A stretch of DNA of 64,000 bases. Origin: a virus. Below are positions 2,256-49,259 of the stretch, in pieces. Positions within the stretch are counted from its first letter, which is position 1; each line of letters starts with the position of its first letter. The position numbers and the translations under genes are program-made. The notes below the pieces were generated by a model. That model was not told the DNA's origin and searched no databases. It worked only from the letters and a program-made list of their open reading frames with translations. The stretch lies in IMG/VR virus record IMGVR_UViG_3300025099_000012, positions 18,300 to 82,299 of that record. One strand, written 5' to 3'.

Positions 2256-3005
2256 ATGGCACAGATATCCGTAGAAGGTTTCAAGAATTTTTTTAAATAT
2301 TACGTAGAGGAATCACATCAACAATTAGGTATTGAAAAGCTATATCAATTAATTCCATTGGATGCGCTTGATGATAACTCTGAGTGGATGCTTCAGTATC
2401 GTAATCAGTTGAAAGATCAAACAAACAAAATCACGCAACAACCAATTACCAAGGTCCAAATGGGACTCATCATGAATTGCAGTCCTGAAAGTCTGCCTGA
2501 CTCACTGATGGCCGACTTTGCACGATGCGTAGATCTATATCAAATGGATCGCATTAGCATTGCATATTTCCTAGGACAATGTGGACATGAATCAGCTGGA
2601 CTTAGGTATCCTGTCGAAATTGCCTCAGGAATAAATTACGAAAACAGGGGAGACTTAGGCAATATTTATCCTGGTGATGGTGTCAAATTCGCGGGTACTG
2701 GCTGGATCCAAGTGACTGGGCGCTATTGGCATCAGCAATACTCAGACTATCTTCAGAAGAATGGAACATTTGATGAGAAGATTATGGAGGTAGGAAAGAC
2801 ACATACAAGTGAAAAGTATCCGTGGTCAATAAGCGGATACTGGTGGTATGCAAATAATATGAATGATTTCTGCAAAATAAAACCACCCGTCGATCAAGTA
2901 GGTCAACGAGTGAATGGTAAGTATTTGCCTAATGGGTATGAAGACAGACGTCTGTATTCTAAAAAAGCTTTTGAAGTATTAGGTCTACCGTATCCTGGTA
3001 ATTAA
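2256..3005 (+). CDS. Endolysin, glycoside hydrolase family 19
   Basis: FLGQCGHESAG, LGN...GDGVKFAGTGWIQVTGR, VNG...NGYEDR motifs. Confidence 0.85.
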   Translation: MAQISVEGFKNFFKYYVEESHQQLGIEKLYQLIPLDALDDNSEWMLQYRNQLKDQTNKITQQPITKVQMGLIMNCSPESLPDSLMADFARCVDLYQMDRISIAYFLGQCGHESAGLRYPVEIASGINYENRGDLGNIYPGDGVKFAGTGWIQVTGRYWHQQYSDYLQKNGTFDEKIMEVGKTHTSEKYPWSISGYWWYANNMNDFCKIKPPVDQVGQRVNGKYLPNGYEDRRLYSKKAFEVLGLPYPGN

Positions 3006-3511
3006 TCAAAGCTGATTAAACTATCAATGACACTATCTGATGTTACGCCTTCAGGTGTTGGCTCAGGTGTTGGCTCAGGTGTTGGTGCAGGTGGTTCCCA
3101 CTGAGAATAAGCAGCGGATGTAATATATGCAGCTAGCTCATCAGTCGTTGTTGTTGCACTGATGGCTTCACAGTAAGTACGAATCTCACCACGACGATCA
3201 AGCACATCTTGAGGAACTGCTACTTCAGTTTCTTGCTTACGAATAACATACCAATCACTAGGAGCAAGCAATGTATATGCTGTTTGATTGGTGTTATCAA
3301 TCCAAAGAGTAACTAGACCTTCGTGATCTTTTGGAAGATCTGGACCCCAGTAGAAACGTTGGTCGTACCAAGGTGCATCAGGAACTTCTGTAATTCCAAT
3401 TGCTGTTTTCTCTTCATATGAAGACAACCTCAGCCAATTGGCTGGATACTGAATACCTGCATGTGTGAATGCACGATCGTAAGATAGTGGGCGTCCGTCT
3501 AAGATAAGCAT
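3002..3511 (-). CDS. Putative tail-fibre assembly chaperone with Pro-Glu-Pro-Thr tail
   Basis: QYPANWL, LLAPSDWYVIRK motifs; directly downstream of tail fibre. Confidence 0.6.
   Translation of the reverse strand: MLILDGRPLSYDRAFTHAGIQYPANWLRLSSYEEKTAIGITEVPDAPWYDQRFYWGPDLPKDHEGLVTLWIDNTNQTAYTLLAPSDWYVIRKQETEVAVPQDVLDRRGEIRTYCEAISATTTTDELAAYITSAAYSQWEPPAPTPEPTPEPTPEGVTSDSVIDSLISFD
3051..3085. repeat. 12-nt tandem repeat x3 (TCAGGTGTTGGC) encoding PTPE
   Basis: Read directly from sequence. Confidence 0.85.
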
Positions 3512-17685: not shown

Positions 17686-18627
17686 TTAAAGATACTCGCT
17701 TACACTATTGGACTGTTCTCGTAGATTTTTAAGAGCTTTATTTTCTAGAGTTCTGACTCGATCACGGCTCATGTTCAACATTTGTCCAATTGCAGTCATG
17801 GACATTGGTTCTAGTATTTCTTCCCCAATCCCATATCGCATACTAATTACTGCAGCCTGCATTTCAGGTAGATCTTGAATGAGCTCACGAATGTCTTCCT
17901 TAATGAATTGTTGTTCTAGCAGCATCTCAGGTAATTGTGTTTTATCTTCTAGTAGATCTATTAGAGCGGTATCTCGGTTCTCTCCAATTTTTATTTCAAG
18001 TGATGTTGGTTGCCGAGCTTTACACATCAAATCTTTAATGTCATCAACAGACAGGTTGAGGTATTCAGACAACTCAAATACGTTTGGTAGTTGACCATTG
18101 ATTTGACTTAGTTCACGCTGGGCTTTCTTAAGTTTGTTGAGGTTCTCAGTAACATGGATCGGTAAACGAATCGCCCTCGATTTTTCAGCGATAGCGCGAG
18201 TGATCCCTTGACGGATCCACCAGTAGGCGTAAGTAGAAAACTTGTAACCACGACCAGGATCAAACTTCTCCACGCCACGGACCAAGCCAATGGTACCTTC
18301 CTGGATAATATCCAATAGGTCCATGTTGCGCTTAGTATATTTTTTGGCGACTGAAACAACAAGCCGGAGGTTTGCTGTAACCATTTTGTCTTTTGCCTTT
18401 TCACCATCTCTAATTTGCTTACGAAGTTCCTTGTAAGGAATGTCCATTACTTGAGAAAGATCTTTTGTATCGTCTAGTGCTAACTCTTCTTTGATCGCTT
18501 TAATTTCCATTAGACGTTGTACATTTCTACCTAGCAGGATTTCTTCGTCATGCTGAAGTAAGGGAATTCTTCCAATGTCACGAAGATATGCACGGACAGA
18601 ATCTCCAGTACTCTTTGTAGATGCCAT
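17686..18627 (-). CDS. RNA polymerase sigma-70 factor (group 2-like, cyanobacterial type)
   Basis: Region 1.2 DSVRAYLRDIGRIPLL, region 2 NLRLVVSVAKKY...FSTYAYWWIRQGI, region 3 AIRLPIH, region 4 HTH. Confidence 0.93.
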   Translation of the reverse strand: MASTKSTGDSVRAYLRDIGRIPLLQHDEEILLGRNVQRLMEIKAIKEELALDDTKDLSQVMDIPYKELRKQIRDGEKAKDKMVTANLRLVVSVAKKYTKRNMDLLDIIQEGTIGLVRGVEKFDPGRGYKFSTYAYWWIRQGITRAIAEKSRAIRLPIHVTENLNKLKKAQRELSQINGQLPNVFELSEYLNLSVDDIKDLMCKARQPTSLEIKIGENRDTALIDLLEDKTQLPEMLLEQQFIKEDIRELIQDLPEMQAAVISMRYGIGEEILEPMSMTAIGQMLNMSRDRVRTLENKALKNLREQSNSVSEYL

Positions 18628-35189: not shown

Positions 35190-35842
35190 GCAAATATCTT
35201 TAATTTTACCTAATTCAAAAACTACTCTTGCTACGCTATTTCCCTATATTGTTTATTTGAAAATGATAGGAGGAGGAGAGTAGCTAGGAATTAACAAGGG
35301 ATATATACAAAACAAGCGTATTTTGCGTAGTTCGTAGTTTCGATTCAAACAAAGCAGCGCTGCATCGTGATATCAGTAATTGTCAACGTCCGCTAACACA
35401 GCCATATTTAGTTTGTACCCGAAAATAAAGACCATATACCCAAATATTCTTGGGTCAGAGTCAGCTAAATTGACATATGGCACAAAAAGATCCCCTATAG
35501 GACCCTAAATTAGTTAGAAAATTTTCGACACGTCTAATCCCTTCTGTACCCCGGTAACCGGTGGAACAAAAAAAATAGTCACAAGTTTTACATGTGATTT
35601 TTCTTTTGATTTAACTTCTGTTAAACAGAAGGATTCAACTCAAGTTAACAACAGTTAATTTTACACAAGATGTTTCACATTTGTTTAACTTATGTTGTAA
35701 CAGTTGAGTTCTTACACATGTAACGTTCACTTAACAGAAGTATAACTTTCGTTTATACATCTGTCGTTGACGTATGTGTATTCATTGATGACTCATGTCT
35801 CACCTCGTAGAGATGTCATCATTCCCCCTCAATTCAATTACC
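35190..35842. other. Non-coding pivot between divergent late and early arms; candidate origin/terminus region
   Basis: No credible ORF; strand switch; inverted repeats. Confidence 0.55.
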
Positions 35843-35882
35843 GAACACACTCACTCACGCCTATCGGCGTGTCTATTAGTTA

Positions 35883-36101
35883 GTGTTCTTTGCTCGTTCT
35901 GTCGTGCTCGCTGTTTTCTCCGCCTCGTTCCTCGTTGGCTTTGGCTTGGCTTTCGCTCCTCGTCGCTCCGTCTTCTGTGAGGCTCCCTCTGGTACCCCTG
36001 GCGTCTGCGCTTCTCGCGTGGCTTTGCCTCTGCTTCCGTTCGTCTTCGCCTTTTGGTGGCTGCGTCTTGCTCCTCGCGGTTGCTCGGTGTTCGTTCTTTG
36101 A
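35883..36101 (+). CDS. Adenine-depleted ORF encoding a hydrophobic 72-aa peptide (or an ncRNA)
   Basis: GTG start at the GTGTTC box; only 3 A in 35883-36116, one of them in the TGA stop. Confidence 0.5.
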   Translation: MFFARSVVLAVFSASFLVGFGLAFAPRRSVFCEAPSGTPGVCASRVALPLLPFVFAFWWLRLAPRGCSVFVL

Positions 36102-36176
36102 GGGCTTTGCCCTCTGAACACATTTAACTCGCTGACTCGCGAGTCTATTCATTAGTGTTCTTTTTATATAACAGCC

Positions 36177-36320
36177 ATGTTCACGATCGTTGATCTTCTC
36201 ACAATGAAGGAACTTGCTACCTTCTCCTGTCACTACAAAGCTTCCTGTCGTGTAGCAGAGATGGAAGAAGAGTTAGATGCCAAAGGAATCAAACATGAGT
36301 TCCTGATTTGGCCTGAGTAA
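36177..36320 (+). CDS. 47-aa early protein (not in ORF track)
   Basis: MFTIVDLLTMKELATFSCHYK...IWPE, between hairpin elements 2 and 3. Confidence 0.65.
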   Translation: MFTIVDLLTMKELATFSCHYKASCRVAEMEEELDAKGIKHEFLIWPE

Positions 36321-47372: not shown

Positions 47373-47516
47373 TGCATCCGTTTACACACTTAATAACACT
47401 TAATTGTTTTCCCTAGTCATTTATTTAACGTTGTTTTCTTGTACTTACTAGACATACTTTAGGTGTCGCTTACCAGCGACTTTCACAACTGGTGTCCAAT
47501 ACATGGCTACAACCAA

Positions 47517-48467
47517 ATGCCCTCAAATTTCACATCTGGCTGGCTCGGCAATGGAGAACGTGCATGGCACGGGCAAGGGGTTGTCACCCCTGGCACTCTC
47601 CCAGCGCGAGAAGCGTTTGAAACAGCAGACGCACTATTTTCTGTCGAGAAACGCGAGCTCTTCTACCTCACTGATCCAGTCCCACCATGCACTTCTGGAG
47701 CACGCAACAGTGATGCCTTCGGAGTTATCCGAACTGACACCCAAGCCTTGCTCGGAGTTGTCACCAAGCAGTATGAAATCGTTCAAAACGAATCGCTCCT
47801 ACGCATGGCGGAGTTCATCCGCGACGAAGCAGACATGGACTGCGTCATCGTTCTATCAGACGGAGCCAAAGTCTGCTTTACCGCCACACTCCGTGGTGCG
47901 GAGACGGACATCGTCCCTGGAGACACAGTCAAACGACGAATTGTTGGTTACTTGGGCCACGACGGTAAAACCGGCTGTGGAGCAAAATTCACAAACATCC
48001 GTGTGGTTTGCCAAAACACTTTGACTGCAGCTATGTCTGGCACTGGTGCTTCTTCAAGCATCACGCACAAAGGCACTGCTAACGCTAACTTCGATGCTCT
48101 TATCAACAGCATTGACGTATCACGTCAGGACTTTATTACTGAGTGCGAGCTAATGCGTGAGTTCTCACGTACTGCTATGAGCATGAGTGCCTTCAACGAC
48201 TATGTCGATCAAGTGTATGACGTAAAAGAAGGTGACATCCTTCGTAAGCGTCAAAAGCTAGAGCAAGCATTCCGTGTTGGATACGGTGCTGAGTATGCTT
48301 CTTTCAGCCTATGGAATGGCTTTAATGCCATTACGCAGCTAGAAACAAGCACTCGTAACCAAACTGCTGCTAAGTCTCGTGCACAGTTTGCACGCGGTAC
48401 TTTCGGTCTCGGTGCACAGATTAGTAAGCGTGCATTTGCTATTGCAACTGAATTAGTCACTGCTTAA
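47517..48467 (+). CDS. DUF932/DUF945-family phage protein
   Basis: AWHGQG, LGVVTKQYEIVQN, HDG, T.IRVVCQNTL, SLWNGFNAIT; start after element at 47465. Confidence 0.8.
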   Translation: MPSNFTSGWLGNGERAWHGQGVVTPGTLPAREAFETADALFSVEKRELFYLTDPVPPCTSGARNSDAFGVIRTDTQALLGVVTKQYEIVQNESLLRMAEFIRDEADMDCVIVLSDGAKVCFTATLRGAETDIVPGDTVKRRIVGYLGHDGKTGCGAKFTNIRVVCQNTLTAAMSGTGASSSITHKGTANANFDALINSIDVSRQDFITECELMREFSRTAMSMSAFNDYVDQVYDVKEGDILRKRQKLEQAFRVGYGAEYASFSLWNGFNAITQLETSTRNQTAAKSRAQFARGTFGLGAQISKRAFAIATELVTA

Positions 48468-48527: not shown

Positions 48528-49259
48528 TTGATAATGTTTTCAAATAAACTTAGAGACCGTTTAGATGGTTATATTGTTAGGCACGATGGCCGTATCAATA
48601 AAGCTTTAGGCGGTTCTCCCTTTGAAGACGCTGACCCCTCCTCCGATATTTATAAAAGAGTTTTACCTAGCCTTCAGCCATACATTGAATTTAGTGACAA
48701 TGAAAAAGCCGCATTAGGAATGTATGGTGAAAACGTACATCAATATTACAAACAACTAAATAATCAACTACGCACTCCTAATGCTTCACCTTTAGATCCT
48801 GAATCAGCAGAAATTGTGGAGTTCATGCAATCTAATCTTGCAAGTGCTCTTCAAAAACTAAAAGCTGTTCAACCGAGAGGTCATACTAGATTCACTAATG
48901 GCCAAGAAACACAAGTTCCTGGTCAATTCAATCGTGCTGTAACAGGCGATTTTGTTGAACAACTATCACGTTTAAAGCCAGGAGACGAAATTTCTGATGC
49001 TGGATTTGCTTCTTATACAGATAGAGGTGGTCCTACATTAGAAATGTTTTTATCTAATAACAAAGATGTTCCTAATGCTGTTATTCAATTAGCTGAAGGC
49101 TCATCTTTAAGGAACATTTCTCCAGTCACTGAATACCATGAAGGCGAGCACTTAGCTATGCCTAATACAAGGTATAAACTTCAAAGTGCTAACCCTGCTG
49201 GTCATTACAGTAGAAAAGCTGGTGATTTGCCTTTATATATTCTTGAAATTCTTGAATAG
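48528..49259 (+). CDS. ADP-ribosyltransferase (Alt/VIP2-like, R-S-E class)
   Basis: Y..LN..LR, FNRAV, D.GFASYT, EGEHL.MPNTRYKL. Confidence 0.75.
   Translation: MIMFSNKLRDRLDGYIVRHDGRINKALGGSPFEDADPSSDIYKRVLPSLQPYIEFSDNEKAALGMYGENVHQYYKQLNNQLRTPNASPLDPESAEIVEFMQSNLASALQKLKAVQPRGHTRFTNGQETQVPGQFNRAVTGDFVEQLSRLKPGDEISDAGFASYTDRGGPTLEMFLSNNKDVPNAVIQLAEGSSLRNISPVTEYHEGEHLAMPNTRYKLQSANPAGHYSRKAGDLPLYILEILE

Follow-up and report, generated by a model that had tools for sequence, protein, structure and literature searches.

The DNA considered here, the window, is a stretch of 64,000 nucleotides (nt) that forms positions 18,300 to 82,299 of the IMG/VR record IMGVR_UViG_3300025099_000012, itself a viral contig of 82,299 nt. 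Its source is an uncultured marine cyanophage, and the subject of this analysis is a tract on the plus strand (35883..36116) from which adenine is almost wholly absent. It amounts to a single cargo gene within an array of early-gene cassettes, and my verdict is that this gene encodes a protein and experiences strong, unexplained selection against adenine.

The 234 nt of the tract comprise 92 T, 76 C, 63 G and only 3 A, which lie at 35980, 35994 and 36101. These are the coordinates and the three positions given in a first-pass annotation of the window, made from its letters alone. Two A-free runs result, one of 97 nt (35883-35979) and one of 106 nt (35995-36100); the next longest, both within the window and anywhere in the 82,299-nt genome, is 31 nt, and no run free of any other base exceeds 44 nt. 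At 27.7% A, a 97-nt A-free run has a chance of about 2e-14 per start position. Stretches of 234 nt contain 64 +/- 10.6 A on average, and the 3 of the tract are the minimum of the window. The tract has a G+C content of 59% against 42% for the genome, and no tandem repeat was found in it except a 23-nt TTGGCT stretch. Across about 150 kb of related phage DNA, comparable depletion is confined to the two genes homologous to this one, and about 1 Mb of unrelated viral loci contained no 150-nt window with a like shortage of A or T. Nothing in the searchable literature described a phage gene of this kind.

Because unitigs from public sequencing runs of different studies carry the tract, it is real DNA, and an assembly artefact is ruled out. 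Run X1 is identical over 35880-36163, and it may be the sample behind the window assembly. In run X3 a single unitig spans 35863-36153 with 10 differences; none of the six listed inside the tract creates an A, and one removes an A (A35994>T, with C35995>G). Run X2 holds a near-identical piece of the tract together with a second, more diverged copy. Run X19 is a metatranscriptome whose contigs are unstranded, and one of them covers 35849-36010; it is a weak hint of a transcript, as it shows neither strand, 5' end nor level, and may stem from DNA carry-over. An exact search with a 22-nt piece of the tract found no match.

It is highly probable that the tract is a protein-coding gene on the plus strand. 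The gene most likely runs from a GTG start to a TGA stop at 35904..36101 and encodes 65 amino acids, with the core motif LPFVFAFWWLRLAPRGCSVF, a model that draws on the homologues and on the substitution pattern described below. The reading frame and the three A-bearing codons (GAG, ACC and TGA) are those of the first-pass annotation, which had also placed a leaderless GTG at the first transcribed base, 35883. That start is unlikely. Between 35883 and 35903 there are indels that break the frame (a 1-nt deletion at 35899 in X19, and frame changes in P0001 and P0004), whereas an in-frame GTG lies 20-21 nt past the cassette box in the window and in both DNA homologues, with ATG at the same codon in the protein homologues P0005 and P0008; the start is thus put at 35904 and not at the box. 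The 21 nt before it (35883..35903, plus strand) are probably a 5' untranslated leader and contain no A, compared with 4-7 A in the same 21 nt of other cassettes. Neither a Shine-Dalgarno sequence nor an ATG is present in the unit. The stop position is kept in 10 of the 11 protein homologues and in both DNA homologues. The annotation had also taken the sharp edge of the tract as support for a transcript start at the box, a claim that does not hold up: the A-free run of the homologue L149 begins 18 nt before its box, the leader of the homologue L150 contains A, and contigs from RNA libraries reach upstream of the box.

The predicted product is small and hydrophobic. An AlphaFold2 model of low confidence (predicted local distance difference test score 61), used for its two helices alone, places a hydrophobic helix at residues 2-17 (35907..35954), which is missing from the form found in L150 and P0006, and another at residues 43-55 (36030..36068), the most conserved part of the family. 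Two residues account for the As inside the frame. Glu26, encoded by GAG at 35979..35981 (A35980), has no codon that avoids A and is nearly invariant, being kept in at least 90% of 14 sequences. Thr31, encoded by ACC at 35994..35996 (A35994), is TGC (Cys) in X3 and X19, and the same position is Cys in L149 and five protein homologues, so A35994 is a peculiarity of the window copy.

Seven homologues of the peptide were found in a collection of 5.8 billion proteins, and a profile search of 1.84 billion cluster representatives added four, for a total of 11, all of them unannotated metagenome proteins. They share the core LP(F/V)VFA(F/Y)WWLRLxPRGCxVF. At the DNA level there are two homologues in viral contigs, L149 (box at 2984, open reading frame (ORF) at 3004-3201) and L150 (box at 2969, ORF at 2989-3138), and a second viral scan gave the same two loci. 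No significant match was found in Pfam or PHROGs and no Rfam match at E <= 1, and no relative was found in 50,697 GenBank phage records or in 185,579 bacterial and archaeal species genomes; an exact look-up of six candidate ORFs in the protein collection found none of them. The family is known so far solely from uncultured marine phage contigs.

For the codon analysis I used the three DNA copies (the window, L149 and L150) together with variant tables of the public runs. Third codon positions hold 20 of 38, 25 of 35 and 23 of 37 differences between copies. The ratio of nonsynonymous to synonymous substitution rates (dN/dS) is 0.26, 0.22, 0.07 and 0.17 (range 0.07-0.26) at synonymous distances (dS) of 0.5-1.7. 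Judged by these substitutions, the reading frame is under purifying selection. The mirror frame on the antisense strand scores almost alike.

The same three copies reveal the rule that sets the gene apart. A occupies 3 of 198 coding nt in the window, 4 of 198 in L149 and 4 of 150 in L150, and these few As sit in the invariant Glu codon, in the stop and in one or two codons peculiar to a lineage. At four-fold degenerate sites A is never used (0/48, 0/44 and 0/35, or 127 sites over the three copies), whereas it fills 20% of such sites in neighbouring early genes and 35% in the large genes of the genome (P from 4e-4 down to 1e-9 per gene). Twenty-one four-fold codons are common to the three copies and 12 of them vary, yet their third bases are T 31 times, C 19 times, G 13 times and A not once. 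Between the window and L149 all 20 synonymous differences are exchanges among T, C and G. T makes up 48% of four-fold sites in the A-poor gene and 46% in neighbouring genes, so the share of A has been taken by C and G, and the rule is one of no A rather than of more U. The genes that flank the A-poor gene are normal in composition in all three genomes. The leader is A-free in two of the three DNA copies, and those two leaders are homologous. The first-pass annotation had proposed to look for A depletion that is kept while the sequence diverges, and L149 and L150 both display it.

Amino-acid choice follows the same direction. The distant homologues P0007, P0009, P0010 and P0011 contain Ile, Lys, Tyr, Thr, Gln, His, Asn and Met, and at those positions the A-free clade has Val/Leu, Arg, Phe, Ala/Ser, Arg and Cys/Ser. 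The A-free clade thus looks like a normal small protein transcribed into a ten-residue alphabet that needs no A. On the pattern of substitutions, real selection against A in this gene is very probable.

The setting of the gene is modular. Ahead of each small early gene in the array stand a hairpin rich in G and C, a spacer rich in T and a GTGTTCTTT box; the start codon lies 20-25 nt past the box, and (T)GAACAC often closes the gene. The hairpin-box array and an outer inverted repeat are both confirmed for this genome. TCTAT-N6-GTGTTCTTT is found at 13 places in the window, where chance would give 0.76; a scan of the viral contigs for the junction motif alone is unspecific, with at least 117 single chance matches. 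Upstream of the A-poor unit, on the plus strand, lie a terminator-like cassette hairpin (CACGCC-TATC-GGCGTG at 35856..35871, with a stem of 6 pairs and a loop of 4), the T-rich spacer TCTATTAGTTA that leads from hairpin to box (35872..35882) and the GTGTTCTTT box that heads every cassette gene (35883..35891). The next junction occupies 36116..36163 on the same strand and consists of GAACAC, a hairpin at 36127-36144, a spacer and a further GTGTTCTTT box at 36155. An extra small hairpin, GAGGGC-TTT-GCCCTC, spans the stop codon (36100..36114, plus strand) in this copy and its close variants only, and it has no counterpart in L149 or L150. No promoter-like (sigma-70) hexamer pair was found at the junctions, and the whole region is no richer in such pairs than shuffled sequence.

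The unit behaves as one exchangeable cargo, since the content of the slot varies and both the relative L007 and run X3 lack exactly the stretch between two junctions (the X3 joint runs from 35850 to 36124 and skips 273 nt). The hairpin at 35856..35871 also heads the first slot in L107, L129, L133, L136 and L148, each time before different genes. Fourteen relatives share the upstream region and have enough sequence to be read, and in all of them the first slot holds other genes of normal composition; three alternatives occur, namely a signal-peptide-like gene, an MFTIV/MFTIQ gene and an MYTV gene. Here the A-poor gene itself comes first; in L150 it takes slot 3, and in L149 it comes no earlier than slot 2. 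The lack of A thus travels with the gene and not with genome position, and to call the element the first early unit, as the first-pass annotation did, is to name an accident of this genome. As a separate observation, slot 1 of L107, L129, L130, L136, L138 and L148 holds, about 130 nt past the first box, a gene of about 75 amino acids that starts VFTTVRSSLITLVVLASGC. It resembles a signal peptide that carries a near-lipobox, which would suit a lipoprotein of the superinfection-exclusion type, and the gene is of normal base composition.

Non-coding DNA upstream of the array (about 340-480 nt; 35400-35880) is nearly identical in about 25 metagenomic and viral contigs. It separates the divergent late and early gene blocks, carries an invariant 25-mer at 35543, and could contain the early promoter, an origin or a packaging site. 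Many of these contigs stop 250-370 nt past the 25-mer, that is, at the first cassette, and such ends are probably assembly breaks at a repeated, variable array. On one 106-kb contig (L125 and L126; IMGVR_UViG_3300050343_000255) the conserved 25-mer is present twice, with one copy of the upstream region fused straight into the middle of a cassette gene; this contig may be a chimera or a concatemer of two related phages.

The genome as a whole is that of a phage with psbA, transaldolase, ThyX and ribonucleotide reductase. Its TerL shares 55% identity with the Synechococcus phage S-EIV1 protein and is remote from all else in GenBank. S-EIV1, the nearest cultured relative, has neither a base-free tract (longest 48 nt) nor a homologue of the A-poor gene. 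Structural genes run on the minus strand to 35180, and small early genes run on the plus strand from 35883 on. No RNA polymerase match was found among the 30 large ORFs scanned, a set without small ORFs or any from the first 18 kb of the genome; the largest ORF, looked at for a hairpin-promoter system of the N4 type, is 814 amino acids long. At 48528-49259 (+) and 47463-48467 (+), in the early/middle region, lie a below-threshold match to an ADP-ribosyltransferase exoenzyme (E 2.8e-4) and an adjoining DUF932 protein. The last 127 nt of the contig (82173-82299) repeat 717-843 exactly. This looks like the k-mer overlap of an assembler; a circular join is possible, in which case about 716 nt at the front of the contig would be surplus or out of place.

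What, then, would drive adenine out of a gene? I place the cause at the level of RNA or translation with somewhat less than even confidence and, a shade more hesitantly still, favour selection on the message or its translation against adenine-dependent attack. Only a benefit tied to expression would pay for the purging of about 60 positions in 200 nt, so selection on the message or its codons is preferred to selection on the DNA. An A-free mRNA, read through A-free codons, would be a poor substrate for adenine-dependent attack on RNA or on translation, and the candidate attackers are host RNase E, ribosome-dependent toxins and anticodon nucleases. Anticodon nucleases mostly target tRNAs for NAN codons, which the A-poor gene hardly uses, and an A-free message would need none of the tRNAs that these enzymes usually hit. 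A small membrane-associated protein could then still be made while other messages are destroyed. A role for that protein in superinfection exclusion or anti-defence is a guess, prompted by its being a small hydrophobic early product and by its slot, which in other relatives is taken by a signal-peptide-like gene. Escape from A-specific ribonucleases was among the four ideas of the first-pass annotation and is the most tenable of them; the escape from restriction sites with which it had been paired is a negligible saving in 234 nt of 82 kb.

Among the candidate attackers RNase E has the most local support, and even so it is unlikely to be the specific cause. The cleavage signature of Synechocystis RNase E is an adenine at -3/-4 with a uridine at +2 (PMC8682795), and in Prochlorococcus RNase E is induced during cyanophage infection, where antisense RNA can shield messages (PMC3113571, PMC9692554). 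HigB, a ribosome-dependent toxin, cuts adenosine-rich codons (PMC4931118).

Several points weigh against escape from adenine-dependent attack. The remaining early genes of this phage are rich in A and evidently do well enough unprotected, and at least two As are always kept, one in the Glu codon and one in the stop. The leader is A-free in only two copies, whose leaders are related, so the constraint may cover the whole transcript or the codons alone. By dN/dS the plus frame cannot be told apart from the antisense frame with which it has third positions in common, and three DNA copies form the whole sample. The proposed tie of any nuclease, toxin or tRNA attack to this gene is drawn by analogy. 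More doubtful again is a wider version of the idea, in which A-free writing would be a general counter-defence device of mobile elements: one critical early protein would be written in a three-letter alphabet, its message and decoding would survive attack by an adenosine deaminase, a ribosome-dependent toxin or an A-dependent endoribonuclease as well as the cleavage of tRNAs for A-containing codons, and the protein would rescue or secure the infection.

A different selective cause at the level of the message is improbable but the best of the alternatives. The A-poor, pyrimidine-rich composition might be an RNA "zip code", or a feature that tunes expression, of a membrane-protein message, with no protective value. 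The hydrophobic product would fit, and in metazoan signal-sequence coding regions adenine is lost through both amino-acid choice and silent codons (PMC3635865). Here, however, T at four-fold sites is not raised and it is C and G that replace A; in one study added C even lowered membrane binding (PMC10066597). The arrays contain further small genes of hydrophobic or signal-peptide-like type, and their A content is normal. Moreover, the known biases are statistical and affect tracts of about 40 nt, whereas adenine is excluded here almost totally over 200 nt.

Could the real gene lie on the other strand? Its message would then be U-free, its product a basic, disordered protein of about 80 residues rich in Arg, Lys, Thr and Glu, and the plus-strand peptide a mirror image. 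Conservation gives this some footing, as the antisense frame that shares third positions has dN/dS values of 0.34, 0.09 and 0.14 and a three-way identity of 0.64, compared with 0.67 for the plus frame, and gene callers picked the antisense frame on five short contigs (P0012-P0016). A strand without T has no stop codons, but it has no start codon either. The antisense ORFs of the three genomes (81, 92 and 124 amino acids) begin and end at different places outside the tract, cross terminator-like hairpins and enter neighbouring genes, whereas the plus-strand ORF keeps the same distance from box to start and the same stop in all copies and points the same way as all other cassette genes. In the window the antisense GTG comes from the GAACAC box, and neither L149 nor L150 has such a box downstream of the gene. 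Finally, in all 23 cases in which a Phe or Cys codon of the plus frame lies over an antisense four-fold box, the codon ends in T or C and not in the G that the antisense frame would allow, which is expected only if the plus frame is read; discordant third-position changes number 2 against 1, too few to decide. The plus strand is thus preferred on its start and stop, its cassette orientation and spacing, the erratic antisense ORFs and the third bases of Phe and Cys codons, and a minus-strand gene is quite unlikely. On the minus strand of the window three long ORFs are open over 35876-36233 (81, 90 and 117 amino acids, rich in Arg, Lys and Glu) because the tract has no T there. The deposited antisense proteins P0012-P0016 are probably annotation artefacts, and three of them (P0012-P0014) begin in the hairpin at 36100..36114.

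A constraint on the DNA itself is very unlikely. The T-free template might resist ultraviolet (UV) dimers or T-acting enzymes such as thymidine-modifying toxins, or the A-free strand might avoid adenine methylation or adenine-directed DNA enzymes. The phage does come from sunlit sea water, judged by its psbA and the marine runs, and the template holds 17 dipyrimidines per 234 nt in place of about 50, with TT falling from 17 to 0. The arithmetic nonetheless defeats the UV protection suggested in the first-pass annotation, since only about 33 of some 40,000 template sites in the genome are spared and the opposite strand gains about 54 dipyrimidines, including 11 more TT. The lack of A follows the gene rather than genome position, and the scan of 30 large ORFs brought up no gene for DNA modification.

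Equally poor are the prospects of an origin with no adaptive meaning, through local mutation bias, recent transfer from a genome of different composition, or birth de novo from pyrimidine-rich DNA. The family is small and looks young, the tract has its 59% G+C in a 42% genome, and hydrophobic proteins are short of A-requiring residues to begin with. Against this, silent turnover near saturation (dS up to 1.7) in three genomic backgrounds has gained no four-fold A at all; the commonest third base is T and not C or G, unlike a high-GC donor; and the flanking genes are normal.

Least likely is a functional non-coding RNA or a transcript built to need little ATP, both ideas of the first-pass annotation: a unit with no Shine-Dalgarno sequence or ATG and a fold slightly better than shuffles (z = -2.4) might suggest the former, but the three-base periodicity of substitutions, the conserved stop codon and the empty Rfam search contradict it, and the roughly 60 AMP residues spared in 234 nt of an 82-kb genome are a negligible saving, far below the ATP cost of translating the product. 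RNA structure as the reason for the composition was likewise rejected, as the fold energy (-70 kcal/mol, compared with -62 +/- 13 in neighbouring windows) is ordinary for the region and weaker than expected for the G+C content.

Silent sites are usually treated as nearly free, and yet one of the four bases is missing from all 127 four-fold sites of these three diverged copies. As a signal of selection on a message rather than on a protein, this is about as clean as sequence alone can give. If escape from adenine-dependent attack is the cause, it would name a selective force in the conflicts between marine cyanobacteria and their phages, flag a tiny protein as important to infection, and make long coding tracts free of a single base a simple signature by which other mobile elements could be searched for similar genes. 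Both an A-free and a recoded version of so small a gene can be synthesised, which makes the question directly testable.

The array in which the gene sits recalls the promoter early stem-loop (PeSL) cassettes of T4-type phages, where small early ORFs are likewise split by a repeated stem-loop and a fixed motif, and where genes are gained, lost and swapped exactly at the junctions among relatives (PMC2839356, PMC4122927). The phage lineage (TerL nearest to that of S-EIV1) and the motif (GTGTTCTTT, with no sigma-70-like hexamers found) differ, and the exclusion of a base is not part of PeSL systems.

Restriction-site avoidance in mobile elements is a known form of target-motif avoidance. In ACA-less mRNAs, which survive MazF, silent-site rewriting removes the target of a nuclease while the protein is kept (PMC9102682). 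The known cases drop a motif of 3-6 nt, whereas this gene drops a whole base, and it does so in nature, unlike ACA-less genes, which are mostly engineered. The uracil bias of bacterial membrane-protein mRNAs also joins a small hydrophobic protein to a pyrimidine-rich, A-poor message (PMC10066597, PMC4520561), but in that case U is enriched only modestly, as a consequence of hydrophobic codons, and in the phage gene silent U is not raised and A is swapped for C or G.

The closest formal precedent is the adenine-less coding region of metazoan signal sequences, described for alternative mRNA nuclear export (ALREX; PMC3635865). There too a hydrophobic coding region loses adenine both by residue (Leu and not Ile, Arg and not Lys) and by silent choice, and the composition itself acts at the RNA level. 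The ALREX region is about 40 nt long and lies at the 5' end of long eukaryotic ORFs, whereas the phage gene is affected over its whole 200 nt, and ALREX works through nuclear export and RanBP2, which have no counterpart in bacteria or phages. The resemblance is thus one of form only: in both, a short hydrophobic coding sequence has shed adenine through its residues and its silent sites together.
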